Positions 522-25,293 of a DNA stretch of 64,000 bases are shown here, one piece after another. Numbering within the stretch: position 1 is the stretch's first letter; each line of letters begins with the position of its first letter. The translations under genes were made by a program, and so were the position numbers. A model generated the notes under the pieces. It saw nothing but the letters and a program-made list of their open reading frames with translations, had not been told where the DNA came from and did not search any database. This stretch comes from Nitrospirota bacterium (lineage in GTDB: Bacteria > Nitrospirota > Thermodesulfovibrionia > Thermodesulfovibrionales > UBA6898): NCBI GenBank assembly GCA_021783515.1, contig JAJXTV010000010.1:29053-93052 (forward strand). Reading direction: 5' to 3'.

Positions 522-1694
522 TCAGAGTCTTCTTCGAAACAGGGCAAAAAAATGCTCTTTTGCCTTTTCGCAGAAAGGCCGCTGCTGCCATGTTTTGAGT
601 TCCACCCGTTCGGAGTTCCTGAGGTCTTCACCGAAAAGGGTGCACATTTCTTTACCGAAGGCCTCGTCGACTATGCCGACGTTTCCCTCGTCGTTTCGTC
701 TCAGGGACTGGAAGTCGAGGTTTGCCGAGCCGATCACGCTCCAGAGGCCGTCGAAGACCGAGGTCTTCGCATGCAGGATCTCGCCGTTATAAGTATAGAT
801 CGCGACCCCGGCCTTCAGCAGCCGGCTGAAATAAGCCCTCGCCGAATAAAGGGCGGCCGAGACGTCCGACTTTCCCGGCAGCAGAAGAATTACCTCCACT
901 CCCCGCGCGACCGCGTCCTCGAGTATTTTCAGCATCCGTCTGCTAGGCGTGAAATAGGCGGTAGTGATAAAAATGCTCCGCTGCGCCCTGTTGATGCTGT
1001 AGTGCAGGAGCCTTCTCATCCGTCGCCGGCCCCGCGCCGAACTGGCGAAGATCGGGAGTACCGGGATGCCGCCCTCGATCGGTTCCGCCTTTCCGCCGAA
1101 GGCGATCTGTCCGCCTTTCCATATCTCCCACGCCTTCTTGAACTCGTCCAGAAGCCTCTCCGCTATGGGGCCCTCCAGAAATATCCCGGTGTCCCGCCAG
1201 CCGCGTTTTTTCCTTAATTTCTTCAGGATGCGAGTGTAACCCGAATATTCGTTTGCGATATTCAGCCCCCCGGTAAAGGCGTAGCGGCCGTCTACGATGA
1301 TGAGTTTCCTGTGGTCCCTGTGGAAATAACGGAACGGCGCGGACCATTTAAACGGGCGGGAGGCGCGTATCCTGATGCCCGACTCCCTGAGCTTTCTCCA
1401 GAACTTCAGCGGCGTGCCGAGCGAGCCGAAATGGTCGTAAAGGATATACACCGCAACCCCTTCGGAGGCCTTTTTCCGGAGGATATCCGCAAGCTCGAGC
1501 CCTGTTTCGTCATTTCTGAAGATATAGAACGCCAGGCAGATGAACTCGCGGGCGTTTCTGGCTGCGTCGAAGATGGCGCTGAAAGACTCCCTGTCCCTCA
1601 GGAGCGTTACCTTGTTGCCGCCGGTGAAGTGGGTGCCGTAGACACGCTGGATATTCCGCCTGGATAAATCAGGGTTTACGGCTTCCGGTCTCAT
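522..1694 (-). CDS. Phospholipase D-family cardiolipin synthase (ClsB-like)
   Basis: 390-aa ORF with two HKD motifs: HRKLIIVDG...GGLNI and LHAKTSVFDG...GSANLD. Confidence 0.85.
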   Translation of the reverse strand: MRPEAVNPDLSRRNIQRVYGTHFTGGNKVTLLRDRESFSAIFDAARNAREFICLAFYIFRNDETGLELADILRKKASEGVAVYILYDHFGSLGTPLKFWRKLRESGIRIRASRPFKWSAPFRYFHRDHRKLIIVDGRYAFTGGLNIANEYSGYTRILKKLRKKRGWRDTGIFLEGPIAERLLDEFKKAWEIWKGGQIAFGGKAEPIEGGIPVLPIFASSARGRRRMRRLLHYSINRAQRSIFITTAYFTPSRRMLKILEDAVARGVEVILLLPGKSDVSAALYSARAYFSRLLKAGVAIYTYNGEILHAKTSVFDGLWSVIGSANLDFQSLRRNDEGNVGIVDEAFGKEMCTLFGEDLRNSERVELKTWQQRPFCEKAKEHFFALFRRRL

Positions 1695-1814
1695 ACTACA
1701 TCATTGCCGAAATGATTCTCTCGCGTCAATCTTCCGGGTGCGGAGACCCTGGATATTTTTGGGGGAAATAGGCTAAAATTATAGAGTACGTATCGGACTA
1801 CGGTAAGACAATCC

Positions 1815-3269
1815 ATGGACATATCCATACAAGATCTCGGGGAAAAGGACTGCGTTTGTGATGTGCTCATTCTTCCCGTGACGGAGGGCGAACCCGGACG
1901 TTACCGCTTCCTCGGGAAGCCCGCGGCGGATGCGGTCAGGAAAGGCTTTTCCCGGAAATTTGCCGGCAGGAAGAATGAGCTTTTTGCGGTCCCCGCACCG
2001 GCGGGTTTCAGTGCGGAGTGGGTGCTTCTCGCCGGTCTCGGCAAGAAGCACGGAATATCGTCCGAGAGCCTGAGACAGGCGGGGGGAAAGGCGGTTTCCT
2101 ATCTGCGCTCCAACGGCGTAAAGAAAGCTGCCCTTTCGACTGCCGTCGTTTCTTCCCTCAAACTTTCTCCCGCTGCGTTTATCGAGGGCGCCCTTCTGGG
2201 GACCTATTCATACGAAAGATACCGGACCGAAAAAAACGGCGGCGCAGTCTCCCGGATGACGATACTCTCGAAGCCCTCCGCTGACCTGAAACGCGACGTC
2301 GCCTGGTCAAAGGCGGTCTCCTCTGCGGTCTCCTTTGCCAGGGACCTTGTCAATACCCCGGCGAACGACATGACTCCCTCACGGCTGGCGGCCGTCGCCC
2401 GCGGGCTGAAAGGCAGGAGGCTTTCGGTGAAGGTCCTCGATCGGCGCGATGCGGAGCGTCTCGGCATGGGGGCATACCTCTCCGTCGCGAAAGGCTCCCA
2501 CGAGCCGCCTAAGTTTATCGTGCTCGAGTACAGGGGCGGCACGGGGGCGCCGCTGGCGCTTGTCGGAAAATCGATCACCTTCGACAGCGGGGGCCTTTCC
2601 CTGAAACCTTCCGAGGGGATGGAAAAGATGAAATACGATATGGCCGGGGGGGCGGCGGTCCTCGGCGTGATGAAGGCCGTGTCGGAGGCCGGTCTGCCGG
2701 TGAATCTGATCGGCATATTGCCGGCAACGGAAAACCTCCCGGGAGGTTCCGCAACGAAGCCCGGCGACGTCGTCAGGGCGATGACCGGCCTTACGGTGGA
2801 GATCTCCAATACCGATGCCGAGGGCAGGCTCGTGCTTGCCGACGGGATCGGCTATGCAAAGCGCTTCAAGCCGGCCGCCATTATTGATATCGCCACCCTT
2901 ACCGGGGCCTGTTCGATCGCGCTCGGCGGTGAGGCGATCGCGATGATGGGCAACGACGGAAAAATGATGGGGAAGCTGAAGGCGTGCGGCGATACCGTAA
3001 ACGAGCGGGTGTGGGAAATGCCGCTTTTTGAGGAATATCGTGAGTATATAAAGAGCGATATCGCCGATATAAAGAACGCAGGAGGCCGTACAGGCTCGCT
3101 TGTCAGTTCGGCATATTTCTTGAAAGAGTTTGCCGGTGAGACGCCTTGGGTGCATCTGGATATAGCAGGCACCGCTTGGGCTGAAAAAGAGAAACCGTAT
3201 ATCCCGAAGGGGGCCTCCGGAGTAGGCGTAAGGCTCCTGGTGGAACTGGTGAGAGGAATAAAAAAATGA
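1815..3269 (+). CDS. pepA: Leucyl aminopeptidase (M17)
   Basis: 484-aa ORF with VGKSITFDSGG, DMAGGAAV and the M17 signature NTDAEGRLVLAD. Confidence 0.9.
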   Translation: MDISIQDLGEKDCVCDVLILPVTEGEPGRYRFLGKPAADAVRKGFSRKFAGRKNELFAVPAPAGFSAEWVLLAGLGKKHGISSESLRQAGGKAVSYLRSNGVKKAALSTAVVSSLKLSPAAFIEGALLGTYSYERYRTEKNGGAVSRMTILSKPSADLKRDVAWSKAVSSAVSFARDLVNTPANDMTPSRLAAVARGLKGRRLSVKVLDRRDAERLGMGAYLSVAKGSHEPPKFIVLEYRGGTGAPLALVGKSITFDSGGLSLKPSEGMEKMKYDMAGGAAVLGVMKAVSEAGLPVNLIGILPATENLPGGSATKPGDVVRAMTGLTVEISNTDAEGRLVLADGIGYAKRFKPAAIIDIATLTGACSIALGGEAIAMMGNDGKMMGKLKACGDTVNERVWEMPLFEEYREYIKSDIADIKNAGGRTGSLVSSAYFLKEFAGETPWVHLDIAGTAWAEKEKPYIPKGASGVGVRLLVELVRGIKK

Positions 3270-4033
3270 GATTCTTCAGGATACTGCTCGTCATCTCTTT
3301 CCTGCTTATTCCGGCTTCAGCCTTTGCCTGGGGACCGCTGACCCATATCTATCTCGGAAATGAGCTTTTTTCTCTGAGTCCGCTCCTGCCCGCCGGCCTG
3401 CTGGAGATGATCAGGCGGTTCCGGAAGGATTTTCTTTACGGCAACCTCATGGCCGACAGCATCATCGGCAAACAGTATCTTCCGGACCACAAGAGTTCCC
3501 ACAGCTGGGACGTCGCCTTCGACCTTTTCAGGGCGGCGAAGACGGACCAGCAGAAGGCCTTTGTCTACGGCTACATGAGTCACCTGGCCGCCGATACGGT
3601 TGCGCATAATGAGTATACCGTCGACAGACGGAACCTTGGGCATACGGTCATGGAGATGAAGGCGGACTGCATTATCGACAAGAAATACTGGTTCCAGGCG
3701 CTTGCGATCGACCGGCAGATCCAGAGGCGCAACGACGTCTTTCTCGAACATTCCCTCGACCGCTTTGTGTTTTCATTCAAGACGAATAGGAGGATATTCA
3801 AGGGGGCCGTCCTCCTTTCGGTCCTGAACCGCGAGAGGATCGGTGACTTCATCGACAGGAACCTCGTGACGTCCTTCCCGGACAGGGAGGTGATCGAGCG
3901 GCTGCATCAGGAGTCTCTCGACAAGATGATCGACCTCTTCCAGAACTGGAAACAGTCCGAGGTGCTCGGCGTGAGCCCCAGCGGGGTGCACGAAAAGGAA
4001 ACGCGCCTCAGGACTTTCCTCAGGGCCGGCTAA
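3266..4033 (+). CDS. Secreted zinc-dependent phospholipase C-like protein
   Basis: Signal peptide MRFFRILLVISFLLIPASAFA. The mature N-terminus is WGPLTH, followed by the histidine motif HLAADTVAHN. Its start overlaps the pepA stop in ATGA. Confidence 0.6.
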   Translation: MRFFRILLVISFLLIPASAFAWGPLTHIYLGNELFSLSPLLPAGLLEMIRRFRKDFLYGNLMADSIIGKQYLPDHKSSHSWDVAFDLFRAAKTDQQKAFVYGYMSHLAADTVAHNEYTVDRRNLGHTVMEMKADCIIDKKYWFQALAIDRQIQRRNDVFLEHSLDRFVFSFKTNRRIFKGAVLLSVLNRERIGDFIDRNLVTSFPDREVIERLHQESLDKMIDLFQNWKQSEVLGVSPSGVHEKETRLRTFLRAG

Positions 4034-4236
4034 CGCCTGCCTCCGCCTGCCGGCTTATCCGTTCGTATCGCCGCCTCCGCGTTTTTCTTTTTCGGGCGGG
4101 AGTCTCTGCGCCCTTTTCCCGCTGCCGTCAGGTGAAGTGCCTCCTCTTCAGTGGCTCTCCCTGCCCCTGCGCGTGATATACTAAATTACCCGGAATCATT
4201 ACTGCCAATGATCAGATCGGAGGGCGACGCCGCAGG

Positions 4237-4650
4237 ATGCAAGTAAAGTGGACACAGGACCTGTCTGTCGATGTGAAAGAGATCGATGCGCAGCACAAGG
4301 AGCTGTTAAGGAGGATAAGCGGCCTGGACTCGGCCATGAAGCAGGGCAGGGCACGGGAGGAAATCTTCCCGCTCCTGGAGTTTCTCGAGGAGTACGCCGT
4401 TATCCATTTCCGGACGGAAGAAGTATACATGATAAAGTACCGATATCCGAGGTATCAACTTCACAAGGCAAAACACGAATGGTTCGCGGAGGAGTTTGCC
4501 GCGATCAGGAAGGGGCTCGAAAAGGAAGGCGCCACTCCGGAAGTGATCGTCCGAAGCAACAACCTTCTCATCACCTGGTTCTGCAGCCATATCAGGACGA
4601 CAGACGCCGCCCTCGGCGCCTTCCTGAAGCCGAAGATCGTGAAACTGTGA
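4237..4650 (+). CDS. Bacteriohemerythrin
   Basis: 137 aa. W-x3-LSV-x-V-x-EIDAQHKEL at the N-terminus, and H/E iron ligands in HFRTEE and HKAKHEWF. Confidence 0.85.
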   Translation: MQVKWTQDLSVDVKEIDAQHKELLRRISGLDSAMKQGRAREEIFPLLEFLEEYAVIHFRTEEVYMIKYRYPRYQLHKAKHEWFAEEFAAIRKGLEKEGATPEVIVRSNNLLITWFCSHIRTTDAALGAFLKPKIVKL

Positions 4651-18497: not shown

Positions 18498-18526
18498 TTG
18501 ACATATTACGTTGTGCGTAATAGACT
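18498..18526 (+). promoter_or_regulatory. Predicted sigma-70 promoter of higBA with an overlapping palindromic operator
   Basis: TTGACA (18498-18503), a 17-nt spacer containing ATTACG-ttgtg-CGTAAT (18505-18521), then TAGACT (18521-18526). The higB ATG lies at 18534, so the mRNA would be nearly leaderless. Confidence 0.5.
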
Positions 18527-18533
18527 ATGAAAT

Positions 18534-18812
18534 ATGATCCGATCATTCCTTGACGCGAGAGCCCAGGCACTGTTTAATGATCTTGACGTGCCGCGGTTTC
18601 GTCCGATCGAACGGGTTGCAAGGCGAAGGTTGCTGTACCTTCATCAGGCCAGTCGCCTGGAAGACCTCCGGGTGCCTCCGGGCAACCGGCTCGAAGCCCT
18701 GAAGGGCGATCGGAAGGGACAACACAGTATCAGGATCAATGATCAGTGGCGGATCTGCTTTCGCTGGAAAGACGGAGACGCCTATGACGTCGAAATTACA
18801 GACTACCATTAG
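18534..18812 (+). CDS. higB: HigB toxin (plasmid-maintenance killer protein family, RelE/ParE superfamily)
   Basis: 92 aa. MIRSF...ALF...LEDLRVPPGNRLEALKGDRKGQHSIRINDQWRICFRW...V.ITDYH is the classical HigB pattern. Confidence 0.85.
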   Translation: MIRSFLDARAQALFNDLDVPRFRPIERVARRRLLYLHQASRLEDLRVPPGNRLEALKGDRKGQHSIRINDQWRICFRWKDGDAYDVEITDYH

Positions 18813-18821
18813 AGGTGTGGC

Positions 18822-19127
18822 ATGACTGAAAAACAGGGAGTTCTTGAACCCATTCATCCGGGAGAGATCCTCCTGGAGGAGTTTATGAAGCCTTTTGGGA
18901 TCAGTATCAACAAACTGGCCCGTGACATCGCTGTACCGCCTGGCCGCATCAGCGCGATCGTCAACGGCAAGCGGGCGATAACCGCCGACACGGCCATGAG
19001 GCTCGGCCGATACTTTGGCACGTCGCCGGAGGTCTGGATGGGCCTGCAGACGGACTACGAACTTCGTGTCGCCAAGCGAACAATCGGGCCTGAGATAGAG
19101 AAACGCGTTCATCGTCACGCAGCATAG
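18822..19127 (+). CDS. higA: HigA antitoxin (XRE HTH)
   Basis: 101 aa. IHPGEILLEEFMKP...SINKLARDIAVPPGRISAIVNGKRAITADTAMRLGRYFGTSPEVWMGLQTDYEL. Confidence 0.85.
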   Translation: MTEKQGVLEPIHPGEILLEEFMKPFGISINKLARDIAVPPGRISAIVNGKRAITADTAMRLGRYFGTSPEVWMGLQTDYELRVAKRTIGPEIEKRVHRHAA

Positions 19128-19325: not shown

Positions 19326-19814
19326 CTACTCAATGACAATAGTCTCCTCAATTGTTAAGGGTGTCATGCCCGTATGATTAATCAAGGCGGCATATACTCC
19401 TCGACAGCCTAGCTGAGTGCCTATGATTACCATTACAAATGCCCTAAGATTATGGCTCGATAATCGATAGCAGTCACTCATATCTGTGATATCAGTTCCA
19501 GATGGATGAGGGAGTTCCTCGGGATGAGTATGCCAGTCACCGATGAAGTGCAATCCATCTTTATGGCGCTGCCATATTTCTATTTGCTGAAGCCTTCGGT
19601 TTGGCTTAAATCCTTGGCGGCTTCTTTTATCGAGAATGCTTGGAGCCGTAGCCTCAAAAACAATCGTATCAGCCCCGACAAACCGTGCAAATAATTGCCC
19701 GCCTGCCTCCTTTGCTCGTGCAGAGAGTTGACGGTATCTATACATTGTGGATAGGGCCGTATCGGTCAGGACAATTGCCGGGCCTCCAGGTACCTCTACA
19801 AGACGCAGGCTCAT
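19326..19814 (-). CDS. cap3: CBASS Cap3 (JAB/JAMM isopeptidase)
   Basis: EAGGQL ... HTHPEELPHPSGTDITD (E, HxH, S, D of JAMM). The start at MSLRLVEV shares ATGA with the cap2 stop (19811-19814). Confidence 0.85.
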   Translation of the reverse strand: MSLRLVEVPGGPAIVLTDTALSTMYRYRQLSARAKEAGGQLFARFVGADTIVFEATAPSILDKRSRQGFKPNRRLQQIEIWQRHKDGLHFIGDWHTHPEELPHPSGTDITDMSDCYRLSSHNLRAFVMVIIGTQLGCRGVYAALINHTGMTPLTIEETIVIE

Positions 19815-21601
19815 GGGATGTGCTTTCCCGAGTGAGAGCATTCAGGACATTCTGCGTCAGGCGAAACAGGGATCTCCTTCGAGAGTCCGCCTTCTCCGGG
19901 GTCGCCATGGCTCTCCCCCCATGCCGGGTTCCACCTGCCGCCTGCACGCTCAATCATCTTCTTCGCTCCTATCCACACTCTGTGGGCAGAAACTGTGATG
20001 TTTCCGAGAAGAATATCAAGAGCTAGATCGGCTATGAGAGAATGAACGTGGGACACTTCGACGGCGCCGTAAGGTTGAAAGAAGCCTCCGCACGCGGGCA
20101 CTGCTTTGAGGGTTCCCTCTTCCGGCCATATTGTTATCGGTATTTTGGGCCTGCCCATATGATCTCTTATACAGTTCAAACAGCCCTGCTCCTTGTGAAA
20201 GACGACAGCATGGCCAGCCGTCGCGTGAGGCTCTGTCCAACCATACAAGATCGGGGACGAAATGAATGAGGAAACCGCCATCGCGTTCAGCCATCCCTCC
20301 GATCGCCAAGAGCCGATAGTTGAAATAAGGAGGTCGGGGTTGCCAATAGAAGGGAGTTCTTTTTCGCAAAAATCTTCACACGTCATATCATATCCTGCTA
20401 TGTCCAGATGGGGAAAACGAGCGGCCAGTCTTCTTGCCATAGTGGTAGCTTTATACATATGGAGAGAATTAAGTCCGAGTCTATGCCGTGCCGGATTTTC
20501 AGAAGCAAGCTGTTCGGGGTCTACCAGAAGGATGCGGCCTACTCCCGACATGGCAAGGAGCTCGGCAACGAAACTTCCAAGAGAGCCAACACCGAATATA
20601 ACAACAGTCGTTGTTGATAACTTTTGGATCTGCGGATTATGATCTCTGCCATGTATCCAGGACGCATCGAGACGTACAGCGCAAGATCCGGATATCTTAG
20701 ATCCCCGATAACGCATGAGGACGATGTCCTCTGGAGGCCGTTGATGATACCCCTTGTTTAATGTGATTGTAGGCTTGGAAATGCAAAGTCCTGCGAAAGC
20801 AACCCCGTTCCTTCCCGCAAAGCCAATCGCTACATCTTTGTATCGCAGGGCTTCATTCAGAAGAAGCTCTTTTACCATGGTATTGTCGACGGCCAAAATC
20901 TTCAGCACGGTATGAAGATGGTTGACTCTTGTCGGATACTCATCGGGCCGCAGCGGCCGAGGAAGCCACAGAAGGGGCATCTTCTGCACATTATTGGCTT
21001 TGAAGTCTTTATCCGACTTCCTGTTTCGTAGCCATTTCAGCAATGCCCCATCGTCTTCTGCAATGTAAACACCAGTCTGAGTGCGCCAGCTGCTGACCCA
21101 GCGGGAGGGGCCCTCCGGGCGGCAGAGCACATAGAAGAAATCCTTCCCTATAGAGTCCCATCTTACCCAGTACGACTGAAATTCATCCTCAAAGTCGATC
21201 GAATTGACCCCGGCGGCACTATCATTTACCAACTTAACCGCATCCGTCAGGAGGTCTCTGACTACGCCGGCGCAATCTCTCGTTGAAAACGCGGACGAAT
21301 CACTCAGCAGGCAAAGCATCCCCTTTGCCTCGAGATGTGGCCATTCTAGGAGGGAAGGGGCCGGCCAAGCAGCAACGCGTGGGCTGCTGAAGGGGACAGA
21401 AGCAGGAAGAAGCACCCTAAGGCTGTACTTGCCCGTGCCCATGCTCTGCCTGGGGATCTCCCACCCGTCGCTGAATTCGTTGCCATAGTAAGAAAGCTCC
21501 TTCTCGGTAAGGGGACGAGCCCCTGGTATAGCTTCGAGCAACTTTTGGACGCCCTGAAGAGATTGCCGATATCGGGTGTGATCAGGCAAATGTGCCACCA
21601 C
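19811..21601 (-). CDS. cap2: CBASS Cap2 (E2-like plus E1/ThiF-like fusion)
   Basis: N-terminal E2-like region with KGMLCLLSD. ThiF Rossmann loop VVIFGVGSLGSFVAELL...LVDPE, CxxC pairs CLNC and CPEC, and ACGGFFQPYG. The likely start is GTG at about 21601/21598, overlapping the CD-NTase stop. The 666-aa track ORF over-extends into the upstream gene. Confidence 0.8.
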   Translation of the reverse strand: MVAHLPDHTRYRQSLQGVQKLLEAIPGARPLTEKELSYYGNEFSDGWEIPRQSMGTGKYSLRVLLPASVPFSSPRVAAWPAPSLLEWPHLEAKGMLCLLSDSSAFSTRDCAGVVRDLLTDAVKLVNDSAAGVNSIDFEDEFQSYWVRWDSIGKDFFYVLCRPEGPSRWVSSWRTQTGVYIAEDDGALLKWLRNRKSDKDFKANNVQKMPLLWLPRPLRPDEYPTRVNHLHTVLKILAVDNTMVKELLLNEALRYKDVAIGFAGRNGVAFAGLCISKPTITLNKGYHQRPPEDIVLMRYRGSKISGSCAVRLDASWIHGRDHNPQIQKLSTTTVVIFGVGSLGSFVAELLAMSGVGRILLVDPEQLASENPARHRLGLNSLHMYKATTMARRLAARFPHLDIAGYDMTCEDFCEKELPSIGNPDLLISTIGSWRSEGWLNAMAVSSFISSPILYGWTEPHATAGHAVVFHKEQGCLNCIRDHMGRPKIPITIWPEEGTLKAVPACGGFFQPYGAVEVSHVHSLIADLALDILLGNITVSAHRVWIGAKKMIERAGGRWNPAWGESHGDPGEGGLSKEIPVSPDAECPECSHSGKHIP

Positions 21602-22610
21602 CTCTTTTGTCCACTGCTGGGGGATTGCTATTTGATGATAGGATGTTTGCAAAGACAGCAGAGGCCCCGTTGCTCTCGGATTTCTCCTGATAACGCGAAA
21701 AGAAGAAATCCGTATTAAAGACCTTGTCCCAGGCCTTAAGAGCATTCTTTCGTGAGCATGCGGGATCATCGAGGCATTTAAGATCGTCGAGGGCGATAGC
21801 GACCTTGTCACGCAAAAATGCGGTGCTTGAGTCGTCAGGGCCGCTTGTCAGCTTTGCTCCCGGCGTCACCGGGTGATTGACTTCGAGGTCGGAAAGAAGC
21901 CGCCGATGGATGGCGGCCATGGTGTCACGAAGGGCGACGTCTTCGCGGTCCTTGTTCGCCACGTAACATTCCTCGGAGAGCTTCGTTATGGTAAAACCGG
22001 TCGCGATGACGTCTTTCCACGCTGTCCGGCTTCGCGCGAACTTCTTAAGGAGACGAACAATTCTTCTGAACTGCCTTCCGTTGTCGATATCAGGGCTCTT
22101 AGTCATATTTACATCATTGAACCAGTCCTCCACATCTGCGGCACGGGAGATTGTCCACGAATCGCCTGTGGACAGTTCATATTCGGAGTCATCTGTGATC
22201 CGGTAAATCGGCATGTCCACATGATAGCCTTCCTCGTAATATATACGGACGCAACTCTTTCTTACCTGTGGCTGCTTATTGAAGCGGTCGTCTTGGAGAG
22301 CATCACAGACCATCTGACGGGCGTCTTTGGCAGCCATGTCTTTTCCGTCCTTTCCTTGAAGGGACTTCCTTGTGAAGTAAACGCCGTCGTCGATGTCATA
22401 GTCATTATCGGGGTCCTGCACCATAGTAAGCATGGCATAGGAGCCCTGCTTTATGAACTCCTGGGGCAGCGGCTTCCCCTTGTCCTTCAGGTTATTCTTC
22501 AGCCTCTCCCGGTTGGCGTTTCTCCTGTCCCTCATCGCAGTGCGGTCACTTTGGCTTAAGGTCACCCTTTCATCATGAAACCCAAGTACATCCTTTGCAC
22601 AGTCATACAT
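21582..22610 (-). CDS. CBASS cGAS/DncV-like nucleotidyltransferase (CD-NTase)
   Basis: 342 aa. It has the Pol-beta NTase motifs GSYAMLTMV...DNDYDIDDGVYF and YHVDMPIY. The start overlaps the capV stop (ATGTATGA). Confidence 0.85.
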   Translation of the reverse strand: MYDCAKDVLGFHDERVTLSQSDRTAMRDRRNANRERLKNNLKDKGKPLPQEFIKQGSYAMLTMVQDPDNDYDIDDGVYFTRKSLQGKDGKDMAAKDARQMVCDALQDDRFNKQPQVRKSCVRIYYEEGYHVDMPIYRITDDSEYELSTGDSWTISRAADVEDWFNDVNMTKSPDIDNGRQFRRIVRLLKKFARSRTAWKDVIATGFTITKLSEECYVANKDREDVALRDTMAAIHRRLLSDLEVNHPVTPGAKLTSGPDDSSTAFLRDKVAIALDDLKCLDDPACSRKNALKAWDKVFNTDFFFSRYQEKSESNGASAVFANILSSNSNPPAVDKRGGGTFA

Positions 22611-23694
22611 TACTGCTTCCTCCTTTTGCCGGACGTTCCGGCATGCTGTTAAAGAGATTATTTATGGCATTGCCATTTGGCGTACAGTTGCGGATTTCAC
22701 TATTGCAAGTACTCGCGTCTTGCCGGGCCTGACGGACTAAAGCGTCGAGCCCCTCAGGTCTGGTCTCATCAAGCTCGAGGTATTTCAACATTGCGCCCGG
22801 GATCTTATCCGCAGGGAAGCGTATAATATTGACCTTCTTTTTGAGGTAAGGAATCAGCTTGCTGCCGATCATGTCAAAGGCATATTCCTGAGCAGCGATA
22901 GAGACACCGGCGGCTATGCCGCCGAATTTCCACTCCTTGAGCCCCCGATGAACGCTATCCTTCTTAATCACTTCCCCTTCGGGTTTCCCGCAGCTTCCGA
23001 GGCTGAATATTTCGATCTCTTCATCATCGTCCTGGCTCATTTGTAAAGCCTCTACAAGAGCGACTATCACCGGGTTATTGGCCCAGAGGCCGCCGTCGGC
23101 AAAGACATCGTAGTTGCCGTTGTCGGGGTGGTCTACAGCAGCGAGAGATCTAAACAAGGGTGCGGCGCTGCTTGCTTGACAGACGTCGACAAGCGTGTAG
23201 TTATCATCCCGGTGATTAGTCCCATAGTCGTGGGGGGTCTTAAAAATATAGGAGCGAAAATTAGCCATATTCACCGCCGTAATAGCAAGGGCAATATGAC
23301 GTTCCTCCCAGATCTGACGGACGGTCGTGTTGCCGAAAACTTCACTCAGGGCCTTCCTCAGTGCCGCATCACCTTCTGCAAGCGCTGTTGGGCGCGTAAA
23401 CATCTGACACATGAGGTTGGGGCCTGCGGAGGACGGCATCTTTTTCCTAAATATTGAAGCCCCATTCTCTTTATAAAGAATTGCCATCTCGGAGGGACTT
23501 ACACCCTTGGCAAGGCCACAGCCTATGATGGCGCCGGTGCTTGTTCCCACGATAAGACTGAACGCCTTCCCAATATCGAGACCATGTTTAAACCCTCTTC
23601 TCTGAGCGAAGGACCTTTCAACCTCTGCAAGAAAAGTCGCCGTGTATATCCCCCGCATACCGCCCCCATCAATACTTAACACTCTGAATGCCAT
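22603..23694 (-). CDS. capV: CBASS effector CapV (patatin-like phospholipase)
   Basis: The start MAFRVLSIDGGGMRG is preceded by AAGGAGGG. It has the oxyanion GGGMRG, the nucleophile GTSTG and the catalytic Asp in ADGGLWANNP. Confidence 0.9.
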   Translation of the reverse strand: MAFRVLSIDGGGMRGIYTATFLAEVERSFAQRRGFKHGLDIGKAFSLIVGTSTGAIIGCGLAKGVSPSEMAILYKENGASIFRKKMPSSAGPNLMCQMFTRPTALAEGDAALRKALSEVFGNTTVRQIWEERHIALAITAVNMANFRSYIFKTPHDYGTNHRDDNYTLVDVCQASSAAPLFRSLAAVDHPDNGNYDVFADGGLWANNPVIVALVEALQMSQDDDEEIEIFSLGSCGKPEGEVIKKDSVHRGLKEWKFGGIAAGVSIAAQEYAFDMIGSKLIPYLKKKVNIIRFPADKIPGAMLKYLELDETRPEGLDALVRQARQDASTCNSEIRNCTPNGNAINNLFNSMPERPAKGGSSNV

Positions 23695-23738
23695 TCTGTG
23701 CCCTCCTTTTCTATCAGCGCACAACAACGCACAGCTTT

Positions 23739-23782
23739 TTACCTACAGGTTAAGTTTAACCTATAGGTAAAACAAAAGTCAA
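23739..23782 (-). promoter_or_regulatory. Predicted CBASS promoter with a near-perfect 15-bp inverted-repeat operator
   Basis: The minus strand reads TTGACT-tttgtt-TTACCTATAGGTTAA-ac-TTAACCTGTAGGTAA. The arms match at 14/15 positions, a TAAACT -10 candidate sits at the dyad centre, and the capV ATG is 45 nt downstream. Confidence 0.55.
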
Positions 23783-23829: not shown

Positions 23830-23889
23830 GTTGAGAACAGCTTTGCCGCTCGCAAAAAAGTCCTGCGGCTACTGAGCCGCGTTCTCAAC
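23830..23889 (-). terminator. Structured element between the TAC and CBASS operons (probable TAC terminator/insulator)
   Basis: The outer 9-bp stem is GTTGAGAAC/GTTCTCAAC. Inside, on the minus strand, is GCGGCT-cagt-AGCCGC followed by aggacTTTTTT. An alternative GCCGC/GCGGC pairing is also possible. Confidence 0.4.
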
Positions 23890-23966
23890 TTGACCCGGCG
23901 TGCAAGGAAGTCAACTGACCAGCTTAGGCGGAAATATCAGATCGATCTTGTGCTTCAAGGGGTATT

Positions 23967-24455
23967 CTAATCGTTGACGCTTGCCTTCGCAGTACGGTTC
24001 TTCTTACTACTTTTCTTTGTTCCTTTTCTTGCTGTCTTGACGCCATCGTTTTTTGATAGATGCTCGTACACATTGATCGTTGGAAGAACAATTTTGTTAT
24101 ATGGTGAAAGACCTGAAAGTTGACCTAAGACTCCCCTAGCAATTCCGTAAAGATTTGTTATCCCTAGGGGGCCGATCATTTTTAACGCGTCAGCCTCTTG
24201 TATGCCGTTAGCAACATCAAACAGACCAAAGATGGACATCTCACACCTGTAAAGCCATTTTTTCTTGCTCTCTCTGTCGGCATTGATCTTTATATTCAAT
24301 GCAAGGAAAAATTCCTTATTATTATCCTTGTTCCGTCCTACATCAACACTCAACGCCACAACATCTTCATCGCGATTCTCAAAATCAACCGCTGGAATGG
24401 CTTCAAAATGAACTTTGTCGAGGAAGTAATCTTTAAGCTGCAACGGACTCGACAT
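23967..24455 (-). CDS. SecB-like chaperone of a TAC (toxin-antitoxin-chaperone) module
   Basis: 162 aa. It aligns by eye to SecB: LQLKDYFLDKVHFEAIP resembles FQIQRIYTKDISFEAPN, and YRCEMSIFGLFDV...NLYGIARGVLGQLSGLSPYNKIVLPTINV resembles the SecB core and C-terminal helix region. It has a Lys-rich tail. Confidence 0.75.
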   Translation of the reverse strand: MSSPLQLKDYFLDKVHFEAIPAVDFENRDEDVVALSVDVGRNKDNNKEFFLALNIKINADRESKKKWLYRCEMSIFGLFDVANGIQEADALKMIGPLGITNLYGIARGVLGQLSGLSPYNKIVLPTINVYEHLSKNDGVKTARKGTKKSSKKNRTAKASVND

Positions 24456-24840
24456 TCTGTGCCTCCAGCAGCTTGATGTCTAGGGTGCTACGATCAAAAA
24501 AAGGCGCTCTAGGCCTAGTTCTGTAATGCATTTTAGGCCACTTCAGCACGGTCGCCTTATCAGTGGCGGTCTTTTCAACAAGTGAAACGGACAAGTCACA
24601 CCCAATCACCGATGCAACTCGCAACATTTGCTTAATGGTCAGATTTGTCCCATAGAGCAACTTGGTCACGTATGCGGGCGTAACGCCAAGCTTCTCAGCA
24701 AATAATTTTCTGCTCCAGCCTTTTTCCTTTAGTTCTTTCGCTACGGTTTCGGTGAAATCATAGACGATCTCTTCATACTGATACTCCAGATGATCCTTAT
24801 ATTTTTCATGTAATTTATCCAGAATGCTGCTTTCTTTCAT
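24433..24840 (-). CDS. XRE-family HTH antitoxin with a C-terminal extension (candidate chaperone-addiction region)
   Basis: The HTH is WSRKLFAEKLGVTPAYVTKLLYGTNLTIKQMLRVASVIG, followed by an aromatic/basic tail of about 45 aa (LKWPKMHYRTRPRAPFFDRS). The stop overlaps the chaperone start by 23 nt. A GGAGGA SD lies upstream. Confidence 0.75.
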   Translation of the reverse strand: MKESSILDKLHEKYKDHLEYQYEEIVYDFTETVAKELKEKGWSRKLFAEKLGVTPAYVTKLLYGTNLTIKQMLRVASVIGCDLSVSLVEKTATDKATVLKWPKMHYRTRPRAPFFDRSTLDIKLLEAQNVESVAA

Positions 24841-24859: not shown

Positions 24860-25234
24860 TTAACCCTGGGAGTCTAAATACTCTTTAACCTCTTTAAGCA
24901 AGCAAAGACCCCGCCTTATTTCCGAGCGCGGAGTAGCCCTTGTTTCCTTCTTAAATCCATGCAGGAGAACAATATCATCATGTAATGGGTGTCCTTTGTG
25001 AGTTCTGTAACACGTAAATCGATAATGCCCCCGTTTAAGCTCATAAAGATCCCCTCTCAGTTTGCGAAATTTAGTCTCATCTGCCGGGGTTCCATTAGTT
25101 TCAATCTTTTTGAGAAATGCCACCCACTGTGACTGTATATGCTCCGGCAACCGAGTAAAATAATCATACGCTTCGGCGCAGCAAAATAATCGTGTACGAA
25201 CATCATTCCTACTCAGTTGAATAATATTAGCCAA
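24860..25234 (-). CDS. HigB/Gp49-like (RelE superfamily) toxin of the TAC module
   Basis: 124 aa. It has the pattern F...LPEHIQSQWVAFLKKIETNG...KFRKLRGDLYELKRGHYRFTCYR...IVLLHGFKK typical of phage Gp49-like HigB toxins. The track start is TTG and the true start is uncertain. Confidence 0.7.
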   Translation of the reverse strand: MANIIQLSRNDVRTRLFCCAEAYDYFTRLPEHIQSQWVAFLKKIETNGTPADETKFRKLRGDLYELKRGHYRFTCYRTHKGHPLHDDIVLLHGFKKETRATPRSEIRRGLCLLKEVKEYLDSQG

Positions 25235-25237
25235 TAT

Positions 25238-25293
25238 TTAACCTAAAAGTAAAGTATTGTCAAGAGGTTTTTTAAAAAGAGGTTTTTAAAAAG
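25238..25293 (-). promoter_or_regulatory. TAC upstream region: TTGACA, a CBASS-like 15-nt box, and two tandem A/T-palindrome repeats
   Basis: The minus strand reads CTTTTTAAAAACCT-CTTTTTAAAAAACCT-C-TTGACA-atact-TTACTTTTAGGTTAA-at-aTTG(start). The box is 13/15 identical to the CBASS operator arm. Confidence 0.45.

Follow-up and report, generated by a model that had tools for sequence, protein, structure and literature searches.

In this study, we examined a 64,000-nucleotide stretch of Nitrospirota bacterium DNA (contig JAJXTV010000010.1 of assembly GCA_021783515.1; hereafter the window) in which a toxin-antitoxin-chaperone (TAC) module lies directly upstream of a type II cyclic oligonucleotide-based antiphage signaling system (CBASS), in the same orientation. 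The palindrome that is typical of this TAC family occurs once at TAC and twice on the CBASS promoter, which suggests that the XRE-type antitoxin of the TAC module probably represses both operons via a shared operator type. A preliminary description of the window had proposed such a shared cassette with the antitoxin as its likely binder, whose loss would derepress both operons, and our comparison with foreign TAC loci lends support to that proposal. It had also held the link to be previously undescribed; our full-text literature searches likewise returned no TAC antitoxin operator on a CBASS promoter and no earlier report of the link. The elements are known individually (TAC, the HigA-type operator, cross-regulation by an antitoxin, and repressor-controlled CBASS), and it is their combination that is new, namely a TAC antitoxin operator duplicated onto a CBASS promoter, which would imply chaperone-linked control of CBASS.

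The sequence elements concerned are the following.
25258..25263, minus strand: TTGACA hexamer upstream of the TAC operator-like site
25238..25253, minus strand: TAC operator-like 16-mer TTTACTTTTAGGTTAA, an exact match to TTWAC-N6-GTWAA
23777..23782, minus strand: CBASS -35 hexamer TTGACT (promoter scan TTGACT-18-TAAACT)
23756..23771, minus strand: CBASS Op1 TTTACCTATAGGTTAA, overlapping the spacer and the -10 (TAAACT, 23758-23753)
23738..23753, minus strand: CBASS Op2 TTAACCTGTAGGTAAA, mirroring Op1 and covering the predicted transcription start

Read along the minus strand, the TAC side consists of TTGACA (25263-25258), atac, TTTACTTTTAGGTTAA (25253-25238), ata and the TTG start codon of the toxin at 25234, and the CBASS side of TTGACT (23782-23777), tttgt, TTTACCTATAGGTTAA (23771-23756), ac and TTAACCTGTAGGTAAA (23753-23738); two sites are set back to back at CBASS, and one is present at TAC. 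The preliminary description had matched TTGACA-atact-TTACTTTTAGGTTAA (25263-25238, minus strand) to the box of the CBASS promoter at 13 of 15 positions, with the boxes placed 5 and 6 nt after their TTGAC(A/T) hexamers. The match and the spacings are both correct, and the identity extends to 15 of 17 positions. Its view that a single half-site is present at TAC was a misreading, since the box with one further base is TTTACTTTTAGGTTAA, a 16-bp site that is complete if imperfect, and the CBASS “palindrome” comprises a pair of these sites. The promoter scan places Op1 over the -10 and Op2 over the expected transcription start, positions that, on sequence grounds, fit repression. The -35/-10 reading is unproblematic at CBASS, where the 5' leader measures ~50 nt and the Shine-Dalgarno sequence (AAGGAGG, 23708-23702) is strong; the latter is situated ~45 nt past Op2 and is followed by the capV ATG (23694). 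A function of the CBASS palindrome as an RNA hairpin or terminator was considered and rejected, as no U-tract follows it and only its second arm would be transcribed from the predicted start.

The strongest evidence on the nature of the box came from TAC loci of other organisms. A word-indexed homology search with the antitoxin found nothing but the antitoxin itself, and tblastn against plasmid and phage collections gave no match. An exhaustive HMMER search of 1.84 billion cluster representatives placed the antitoxin in a large family whose recognition helix, LGV[ST]xA[YF][VI]TKLL, is conserved, the best hit being 43% identical. Nine family loci were fetched by antitoxin protein homology alone, the DNA motif playing no part in their choice, and all nine proved to be Gp49/XRE/SecB-like TAC loci (only antitoxin and chaperone remain in one, L120). 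In each of the eight with an intact toxin gene a palindrome stands directly before the toxin start, in six distinct operator sequences with the consensus T(T/A)AAC-(C/T)T(A/T)TA(G/A)-GTTAA, followed by 0-7 nt and then the start codon. Seven of the eight have TTGAC(A) 3-5 nt before the palindrome, the other, L126, having TTGCCG, and the five loci that match the exact pattern have exactly one copy each in 5-8 kb. The position of TTTACTTTTAGGTTAA before the toxin start in the window matches that in these foreign loci, to whose toxins the window toxin can be aligned over its full length, start included. L126 is the locus of the P0377 antitoxin, whose recognition helix is identical to that of the window antitoxin (TPAYVTKLL); its palindrome is perfect (TTAACCTATAGGTTAA) and 15/16 identical to CBASS Op1. 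L120 is without the palindrome, the end of its toxin gene having been replaced by an insertion sequence (IS) element; an IS21-type element (rve transposase and IstB; 1342-4390) occupies the place where toxin gene and operator belong. A putative operator of HigA type, a TTAAC-N6-GTTAA palindrome 5' of the toxin start, is therefore found in 8/8 foreign loci and in the window. These data indicate that the box is probably the autoregulatory operator, a 16-bp TTAAC-N6-GTTAA, of a TAC family composed of Gp49/HigB toxin, XRE antitoxin and SecB-like chaperone, and this family operator can be used to search for other genes under TAC control. The preliminary description had asked whether the box co-occurs in related islands: it is kept at all eight foreign TACs, whereas the TAC-CBASS pairing was seen in one lineage only.

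Related CBASS loci show that the box does not belong to CBASS as such. Neither a TTWAC-N6-GTWAA site nor a homolog of a TAC protein was found in 84 capV loci (527 kb), and the nearest CapV relatives, L013 (89% identity) and L014 (77%), both have neither an upstream TAC nor the box. The window CBASS can be aligned to that of L013 only from the ribosome-binding site onward; the window CBASS promoter is therefore a replacement. An exact-pattern scan for the long CBASS palindrome in 185,579 species genomes, a set that does not include the source genome, found five unrelated loci, none with CBASS or TAC, among them ArsR-type operators (0-nt spacing) and a Vibrio/Photobacterium element. The ArsR-type cases are ACCTATAGGTTAATTAACCT(T/G)AAGGT palindromes with 0-nt spacing directly 5' of ArsR/SmtB-like open reading frames (ORFs) in metagenome-assembled genomes of a deltaproteobacterium (L001, 7321-7346) and of Telluria (L005, 2975-3000); they resemble the window sites in their words, but belong to another family and have another spacing.

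The resemblance of the two intergenic regions of the window, taken alone, is marginal. At up to three mismatches the 15-mer occurs in the 64 kb only in both arms of the palindrome and in the TAC box, against 0.26 occurrences expected from whole-window shuffles. The shuffling check that the preliminary description had called for has a divided outcome: an arm of the CBASS palindrome rarely recurs with at least 13/15 identity in the AT-rich stretch upstream of TAC (P ~0.0014, dinucleotide shuffles), whereas the two intergenic regions share some 15-mer at that level much more often (P ~0.13), and the best local alignment of the two regions has P ~0.05. The earlier caveat about AT-rich background was consequently justified, the unbiased chance probability being ~0.05-0.13. 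A different picture was obtained with motifs derived from outside the window. The pattern TTWAC-N6-GTWAA, which was taken from the TAC loci of other organisms, occurs three times in the 64 kb against 0.06 expected (three or more in 0/100 shuffles), and all three occurrences fall in the TAC and CBASS promoters. With a weight matrix built from the six non-window operators only, the three highest-ranking sites of the window are CBASS Op1 (23.8 bits), the TAC site (22.1) and CBASS Op2 (19.2), the next scoring 11.4, and in 200 local-composition shuffles the third-best site never exceeded 14.3. In addition, all three window sites have a deviation in common, TTTAC for TTAAC in one half. The comparative data turn a marginal match into strong evidence for a shared operator. 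A chance match in AT-rich promoter DNA, which the shuffles of the two regions by themselves would have allowed, is effectively refuted by the concentration of a foreign-derived motif in just these two promoters and its retention in 8/8 foreign TAC loci.

The sites need not be regulatory. The CBASS promoter could be a copy of a TAC-type promoter that was gained by recombination and serves as a promoter only, its operators having little or no effect. That it was swapped in is indicated by homology to the nearest CBASS beginning only at the ribosome-binding site, and in G+C content the TAC region (~42%) does differ from CBASS (~51%) and from the genome and window (each ~58%). However, the two mirrored sites are well kept and cover precisely the -10 and the transcription start, one of them outscores the TAC site, and an antitoxin that binds its own site should bind the CBASS sites as well, all of which leaves a purely promoter-donating event improbable. 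Nor is the TAC antitoxin the sole candidate binder. It had been described as the only DNA-binding protein encoded in the island, which is incorrect, as a HigB/HigA pair with its own operator is present at 18534-19127 on the plus strand; the TAC antitoxin and HigA2 are the only two XRE-type ORFs detected in the window. The second module comprises these features.
18498..19127, plus strand: second toxin-antitoxin (TA) module, HigBA2, outside the shared-operator system
18498-18503, plus strand: TTGACA of the HigBA2 promoter
18505-18521, plus strand: palindrome ATTACG-N5-CGTAAT of the HigBA2 promoter, with TTGACA-t- before it
18534-18812, plus strand: HigB (PF05015)
18822-19127, plus strand: HigA2, homolog of Pseudomonas aeruginosa HigA (PDB 6JPI, E = 1e-20)

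HigA2 is of interest as a binder of the three sites since its P. aeruginosa homolog recognizes TTAAC/GTTAA half-sites, but it was rejected because its own promoter has the ATTACG-N5-CGTAAT palindrome and no TTWAC-N6-GTWAA site. That difference makes the TAC antitoxin the parsimonious binder of all three sites and HigA2 a very improbable one.

Several observations weigh against repression of both operons by the TAC antitoxin. One is that the TTAAC/GTTAA half-site type is not exclusive to TAC antitoxins and is also used by other XRE subfamilies, so that another XRE repressor, encoded elsewhere in the genome, could be the binder. Among 14 viral-contig matches to the promoter-plus-operator pattern, eight lie before Gp49-like toxin ORFs and three in cI-like switch regions. 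The latter are prophage-like loci in which TTGACA-N4-TTAACCTATA(G/A)GTTAA adjoins a gene for a cI-like XRE repressor (L104, 3121-3146; L107, 2197-2222; L112, 3221-3246), with a mirrored degenerate operator copy ~170 nt away; apparently, these are lysis/lysogeny switch regions that use the same operator type. Another is that the double-site architecture of the window CBASS recurs in viral contig L157, where the promoter (1421-1464) reads TTGACA-5-TTAACCTCGAGGTTAA-aa-TTAACCTCAAGGTAAA and belongs not to a TAC but to a pair of XRE and Peptidase_M78 genes (1502-2391; ImmR/ImmA- or CapH/CapP-like). A loose double-operator pattern matched at least 119 loci in viral contigs, mostly by chance, and of the 19 that remained after filtering only L157 is convincing. 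CapH/CapP is moreover a known CBASS regulator, and the double operator at CBASS could on this account be bound by a CapH/ImmR-like repressor with an M78 peptidase encoded outside the window, its likeness to the TAC site reflecting no more than a common half-site type. We consider this unlikely. No XRE and M78 pair is present in the 64-kb window: the CBASS neighbors scanned, with TAC and HigBA2 as the flanks, have no peptidase domain, M78 included, and so do not form a CapH/CapP system, the island proteins scanned gave no match to a WYL domain as in CapW, and the window has no kinase gene adjoining CBASS and no regulator gene between TAC and CBASS. In addition, the family-specific 6-nt spacing and the shared TTTAC deviation tie the sites at CBASS to that of the neighboring TAC.

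The remaining points against repression of both operons concern distribution, physiology and promoter anatomy. The TAC-CBASS arrangement is known from one lineage, in which no difference separates the seven contigs that carry it within the 2.1 kb compared (100% identity), so that they permit no test of covariation between antitoxin and operator. A toxin that blocks translation, released at the same moment, would limit what is gained by inducing CBASS, although such blunting of CBASS synthesis would be avoided if the operators were vacated before the toxin is freed. At TAC loci, furthermore, the start codon is 0-7 nt after the palindrome, and the promoter reading considered there (TTGACA-17-TAAnnn) would have transcription begin at the start codon or past it, while the N-termini of the toxins align across the family. 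Because the toxin start codon trails the site by 3 nt in the window, the -35 assignment at TAC is uncertain, as the preliminary description had cautioned, and TTGACA may be either a -35 element or part of a regulatory site. Possibly, TAC transcripts are leaderless or begin unusually near the -10; the right half-site (TAGGT) may double as a ribosome-binding site; the true promoter may lie further upstream, as in a phage Gp49 group that has TTGAAT-17-TATAAT before the site and TTGAC in its spacer; or TTGAC may itself be part of the TAC operator. No consistent Shine-Dalgarno sequence is seen before the toxin genes of the family (window 25232-25253 and loci L097, L098, L100, L102, L118, L121, L123 and L126). 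A tandem direct repeat, TTTAAAAA(A)CCTCTT, is present in two copies at 25262-25293 (minus strand), immediately upstream of the TAC TTGACA and running into it, and could be a UP-element-like A-tract or a further binding site.

The genes of the two operons and the terminator-like element that lies between them are as follows.
24860..25234, minus strand: Gp49/HigB-type toxin, 124 aa, TTG start (Pfam Gp49, E = 4e-11)
24433..24840, minus strand: XRE helix-turn-helix (HTH) antitoxin, 135 aa, with a C-terminal tail after the HTH (Pfam HTH_3, family alignments)
23967..24455, minus strand: SecB-like chaperone, 162 aa (Pfam SecB, 29.8 bits, cut-off 26)
23865..23880, minus strand: terminator-like hairpin between TAC and CBASS, with a T-run after it
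19326..23694, minus strand: type II CBASS operon (Pfam, PADLOC, NCBIfam)
22603-23694, minus strand: patatin phospholipase CapV (CBASS_lipase, 203.6 bits, cut-off 200)
21582-22610, minus strand: CD-NTase (cyclase, E = 1e-136)
19811-21811, minus strand: Cap2 E1/E2 (E1-E2, E = 4e-163)
19326-19841, minus strand: Cap3 JAB (JAB, E = 2e-50)

Toxin, antitoxin and SecB-like chaperone are adjacent and co-oriented, in the gene order of the eight homologous loci, which identifies the module as a TAC; the genes for antitoxin and chaperone overlap for 23 nt. With scores of 21-24 bits against NCBIfam SecB equivalogs that have cut-offs of 103-180, the chaperone is a divergent SecB paralog and not the housekeeping SecB. 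The antitoxin tail extends ~45 aa past the HTH, is aromatic-rich (W, Y and FF are present) and has ...SVAA as its last residues; AA or VA endings are common in the family. This end resembles the Val-Ala and Ala-Ala degrons of TAC antitoxins, and the tail may be a chaperone-addiction (ChAD) extension. The presence of a CD-NTase, an effector, Cap2 (E1/E2) and Cap3 (JAB) identifies the downstream operon as a type II CBASS.

The mechanism that we propose would operate as follows. The window CBASS has, on our reading, lost the promoter type of its relatives and is now driven by a TAC-type promoter with two operators. Antitoxin dimers, kept soluble and shielded from ClpXP by the SecB-like chaperone, would occupy one site at TAC for autorepression and two at CBASS for tight repression; the CBASS site being double and higher-scoring points to firmer repression there than at TAC. 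If the chaperone were titrated, phage proteins being one possible agent, the antitoxin would be lost, and that loss would free the toxin and derepress CBASS simultaneously. If this is correct, TAC would sense phage and switch the transcription of a second immune system, an instance of hierarchical wiring inside a defense island.

TAC systems are known as abortive-infection modules that stand alone and in which the chaperone serves as a sensor for structural proteins of phages. TAC antitoxins depend on the SecB-like chaperone for their solubility and for protection from ClpXP. In Escherichia coli HigBAC, the structural protein gpV of phage lambda titrates the HigC chaperone, which senses it through its competition with the ChAD element of the antitoxin, and a C-terminal Val-Ala or Ala-Ala marks TAC antitoxins for ClpXP (bioRxiv 10.1101/2024.02.24.581848). 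E. coli HigBAC and CmdTAC and the Mycobacterium tuberculosis TAC (HigB1-HigA1-SecB-like chaperone) share the tripartite architecture of the window module; their antitoxins carry a chaperone-addiction tail and a ClpXP-type degron, both C-terminal, and the chaperone is the phage sensor (bioRxiv 10.1101/2024.02.24.581848). The studies of these systems used foreign promoters and mention no operator or autoregulation (bioRxiv 10.1101/2024.02.24.581848), and they describe no TAC antitoxin that controls a second defense system. A precedent for cross-regulation is P. aeruginosa HigA, which binds TTAAC GTTAA at its own, the mvfR and the pel promoters and represses them, two HigA dimers binding a compound site (PMC6987408). 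As proposed for the window, an XRE antitoxin there acts on its own operon and on unrelated promoters through the same TTAAC/GTTAA half-sites. However, P. aeruginosa HigBA consists of two genes without a chaperone and has abutting half-sites and virulence targets, whereas the window has a chaperone, a 6-nt spacing and an immune operon as target; the TAC antitoxin is only a distant relative of P. aeruginosa HigA, and it is the HigA2 of the island that is its homolog.

The proposed control of CBASS can likewise be compared with CapH/CapP, CapW and CapK/CapS, in which the CBASS promoter is bound by a repressor encoded beside the operon, and a stress signal inactivates that repressor. These systems sense DNA damage or single-stranded DNA via a peptidase, a WYL domain or a kinase, whereas inactivation in the window would proceed by chaperone titration followed by antitoxin proteolysis, and the module, unlike theirs, also carries a toxin. 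To our knowledge, every CBASS transcriptional regulator described to date (CapW, CapH/CapP, CapK/CapS) responds to DNA damage. An input from chaperone load, if it exists, would be distinct from these.

Related CBASS operons point to chaperone-linked logic by another route. Perfect copies (TTAGCACTC-N9-GAGTGCTAA) of CIRCE (an inverted repeat controlling chaperone expression), the operator of the heat-shock repressor HrcA (PMC7464140 for the consensus), are found 54-167 nt upstream of capV in L013 (4947-4973; CapV identity 89%), L017 (1799-1825; 74%) and L090 (1350-1376; 63%). A perfect CIRCE is expected ~1e-5 times in 527 kb. No chaperone gene was called in L013 or on the short L017 and L090 contigs, and among the papers listed by a literature search none links CIRCE or HrcA with CBASS. 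HrcA activity depends on GroEL. The parallel is that repressor activity, here as there, would be chaperone-dependent; the difference is that the window has no match to CIRCE, even at three mismatches, and has a SecB-like chaperone and a TA antitoxin in place of GroEL and HrcA. Control of CBASS linked to chaperones may therefore be a recurring theme, realized through interchangeable promoter cassettes. It is a more tentative, and at present rather doubtful, extension that CBASS expression is wired to the chaperone state of the cell throughout the clade by such swappable cassettes, with the TAC antitoxin here and HrcA/CIRCE in three relatives. Phage morphogenesis fills the cell with clients of chaperones, and chaperone load would be the common signal that arms CBASS. 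A second palindrome, (C/T)ACAAnATATTGTG, is situated between TTGAC(T/A) and the -10 region in the CBASS promoters of L013 (4916-4927), L014 (4887-4898) and L016 (4366-4377), none of which has a regulator gene adjacent to CBASS.

Other features of the island are of less direct bearing. Searches of PADLOC gave no match for the TAC toxin or chaperone and weak matches of the antitoxin to the candidate defense family PDC-M64B/C (E = 9e-10 to 2e-6), and no Rfam family was found within 17.0-27.5 kb. The terminator-like hairpin, in the stretch from the chaperone gene to the CBASS promoter, is bracketed by a 9-bp inverted repeat, GTTGAGAAC ... GTTCTCAAC (23835-23895, minus strand). HigBA2, which alone among the island genes discussed is on the plus strand, is convergent with CBASS, giving the CBASS operon a TA module on both flanks.

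TACs of the family are themselves often found within defense-type clusters (L098/L099, 1375-7962; L118, 1-6756; L123, 1006-6756; L126, 1-7127). Their neighbors include Eco57I/MmeI-like methyltransferases, KwaA, a reverse transcriptase, GmrSD, and SNF2/PLD or SNF2/Mrr helicases. In L098/L099, a gene for a 1048-aa PLD-SNF2 protein begins 2 nt past the stop codon of the chaperone gene and is probably co-transcribed with TAC.

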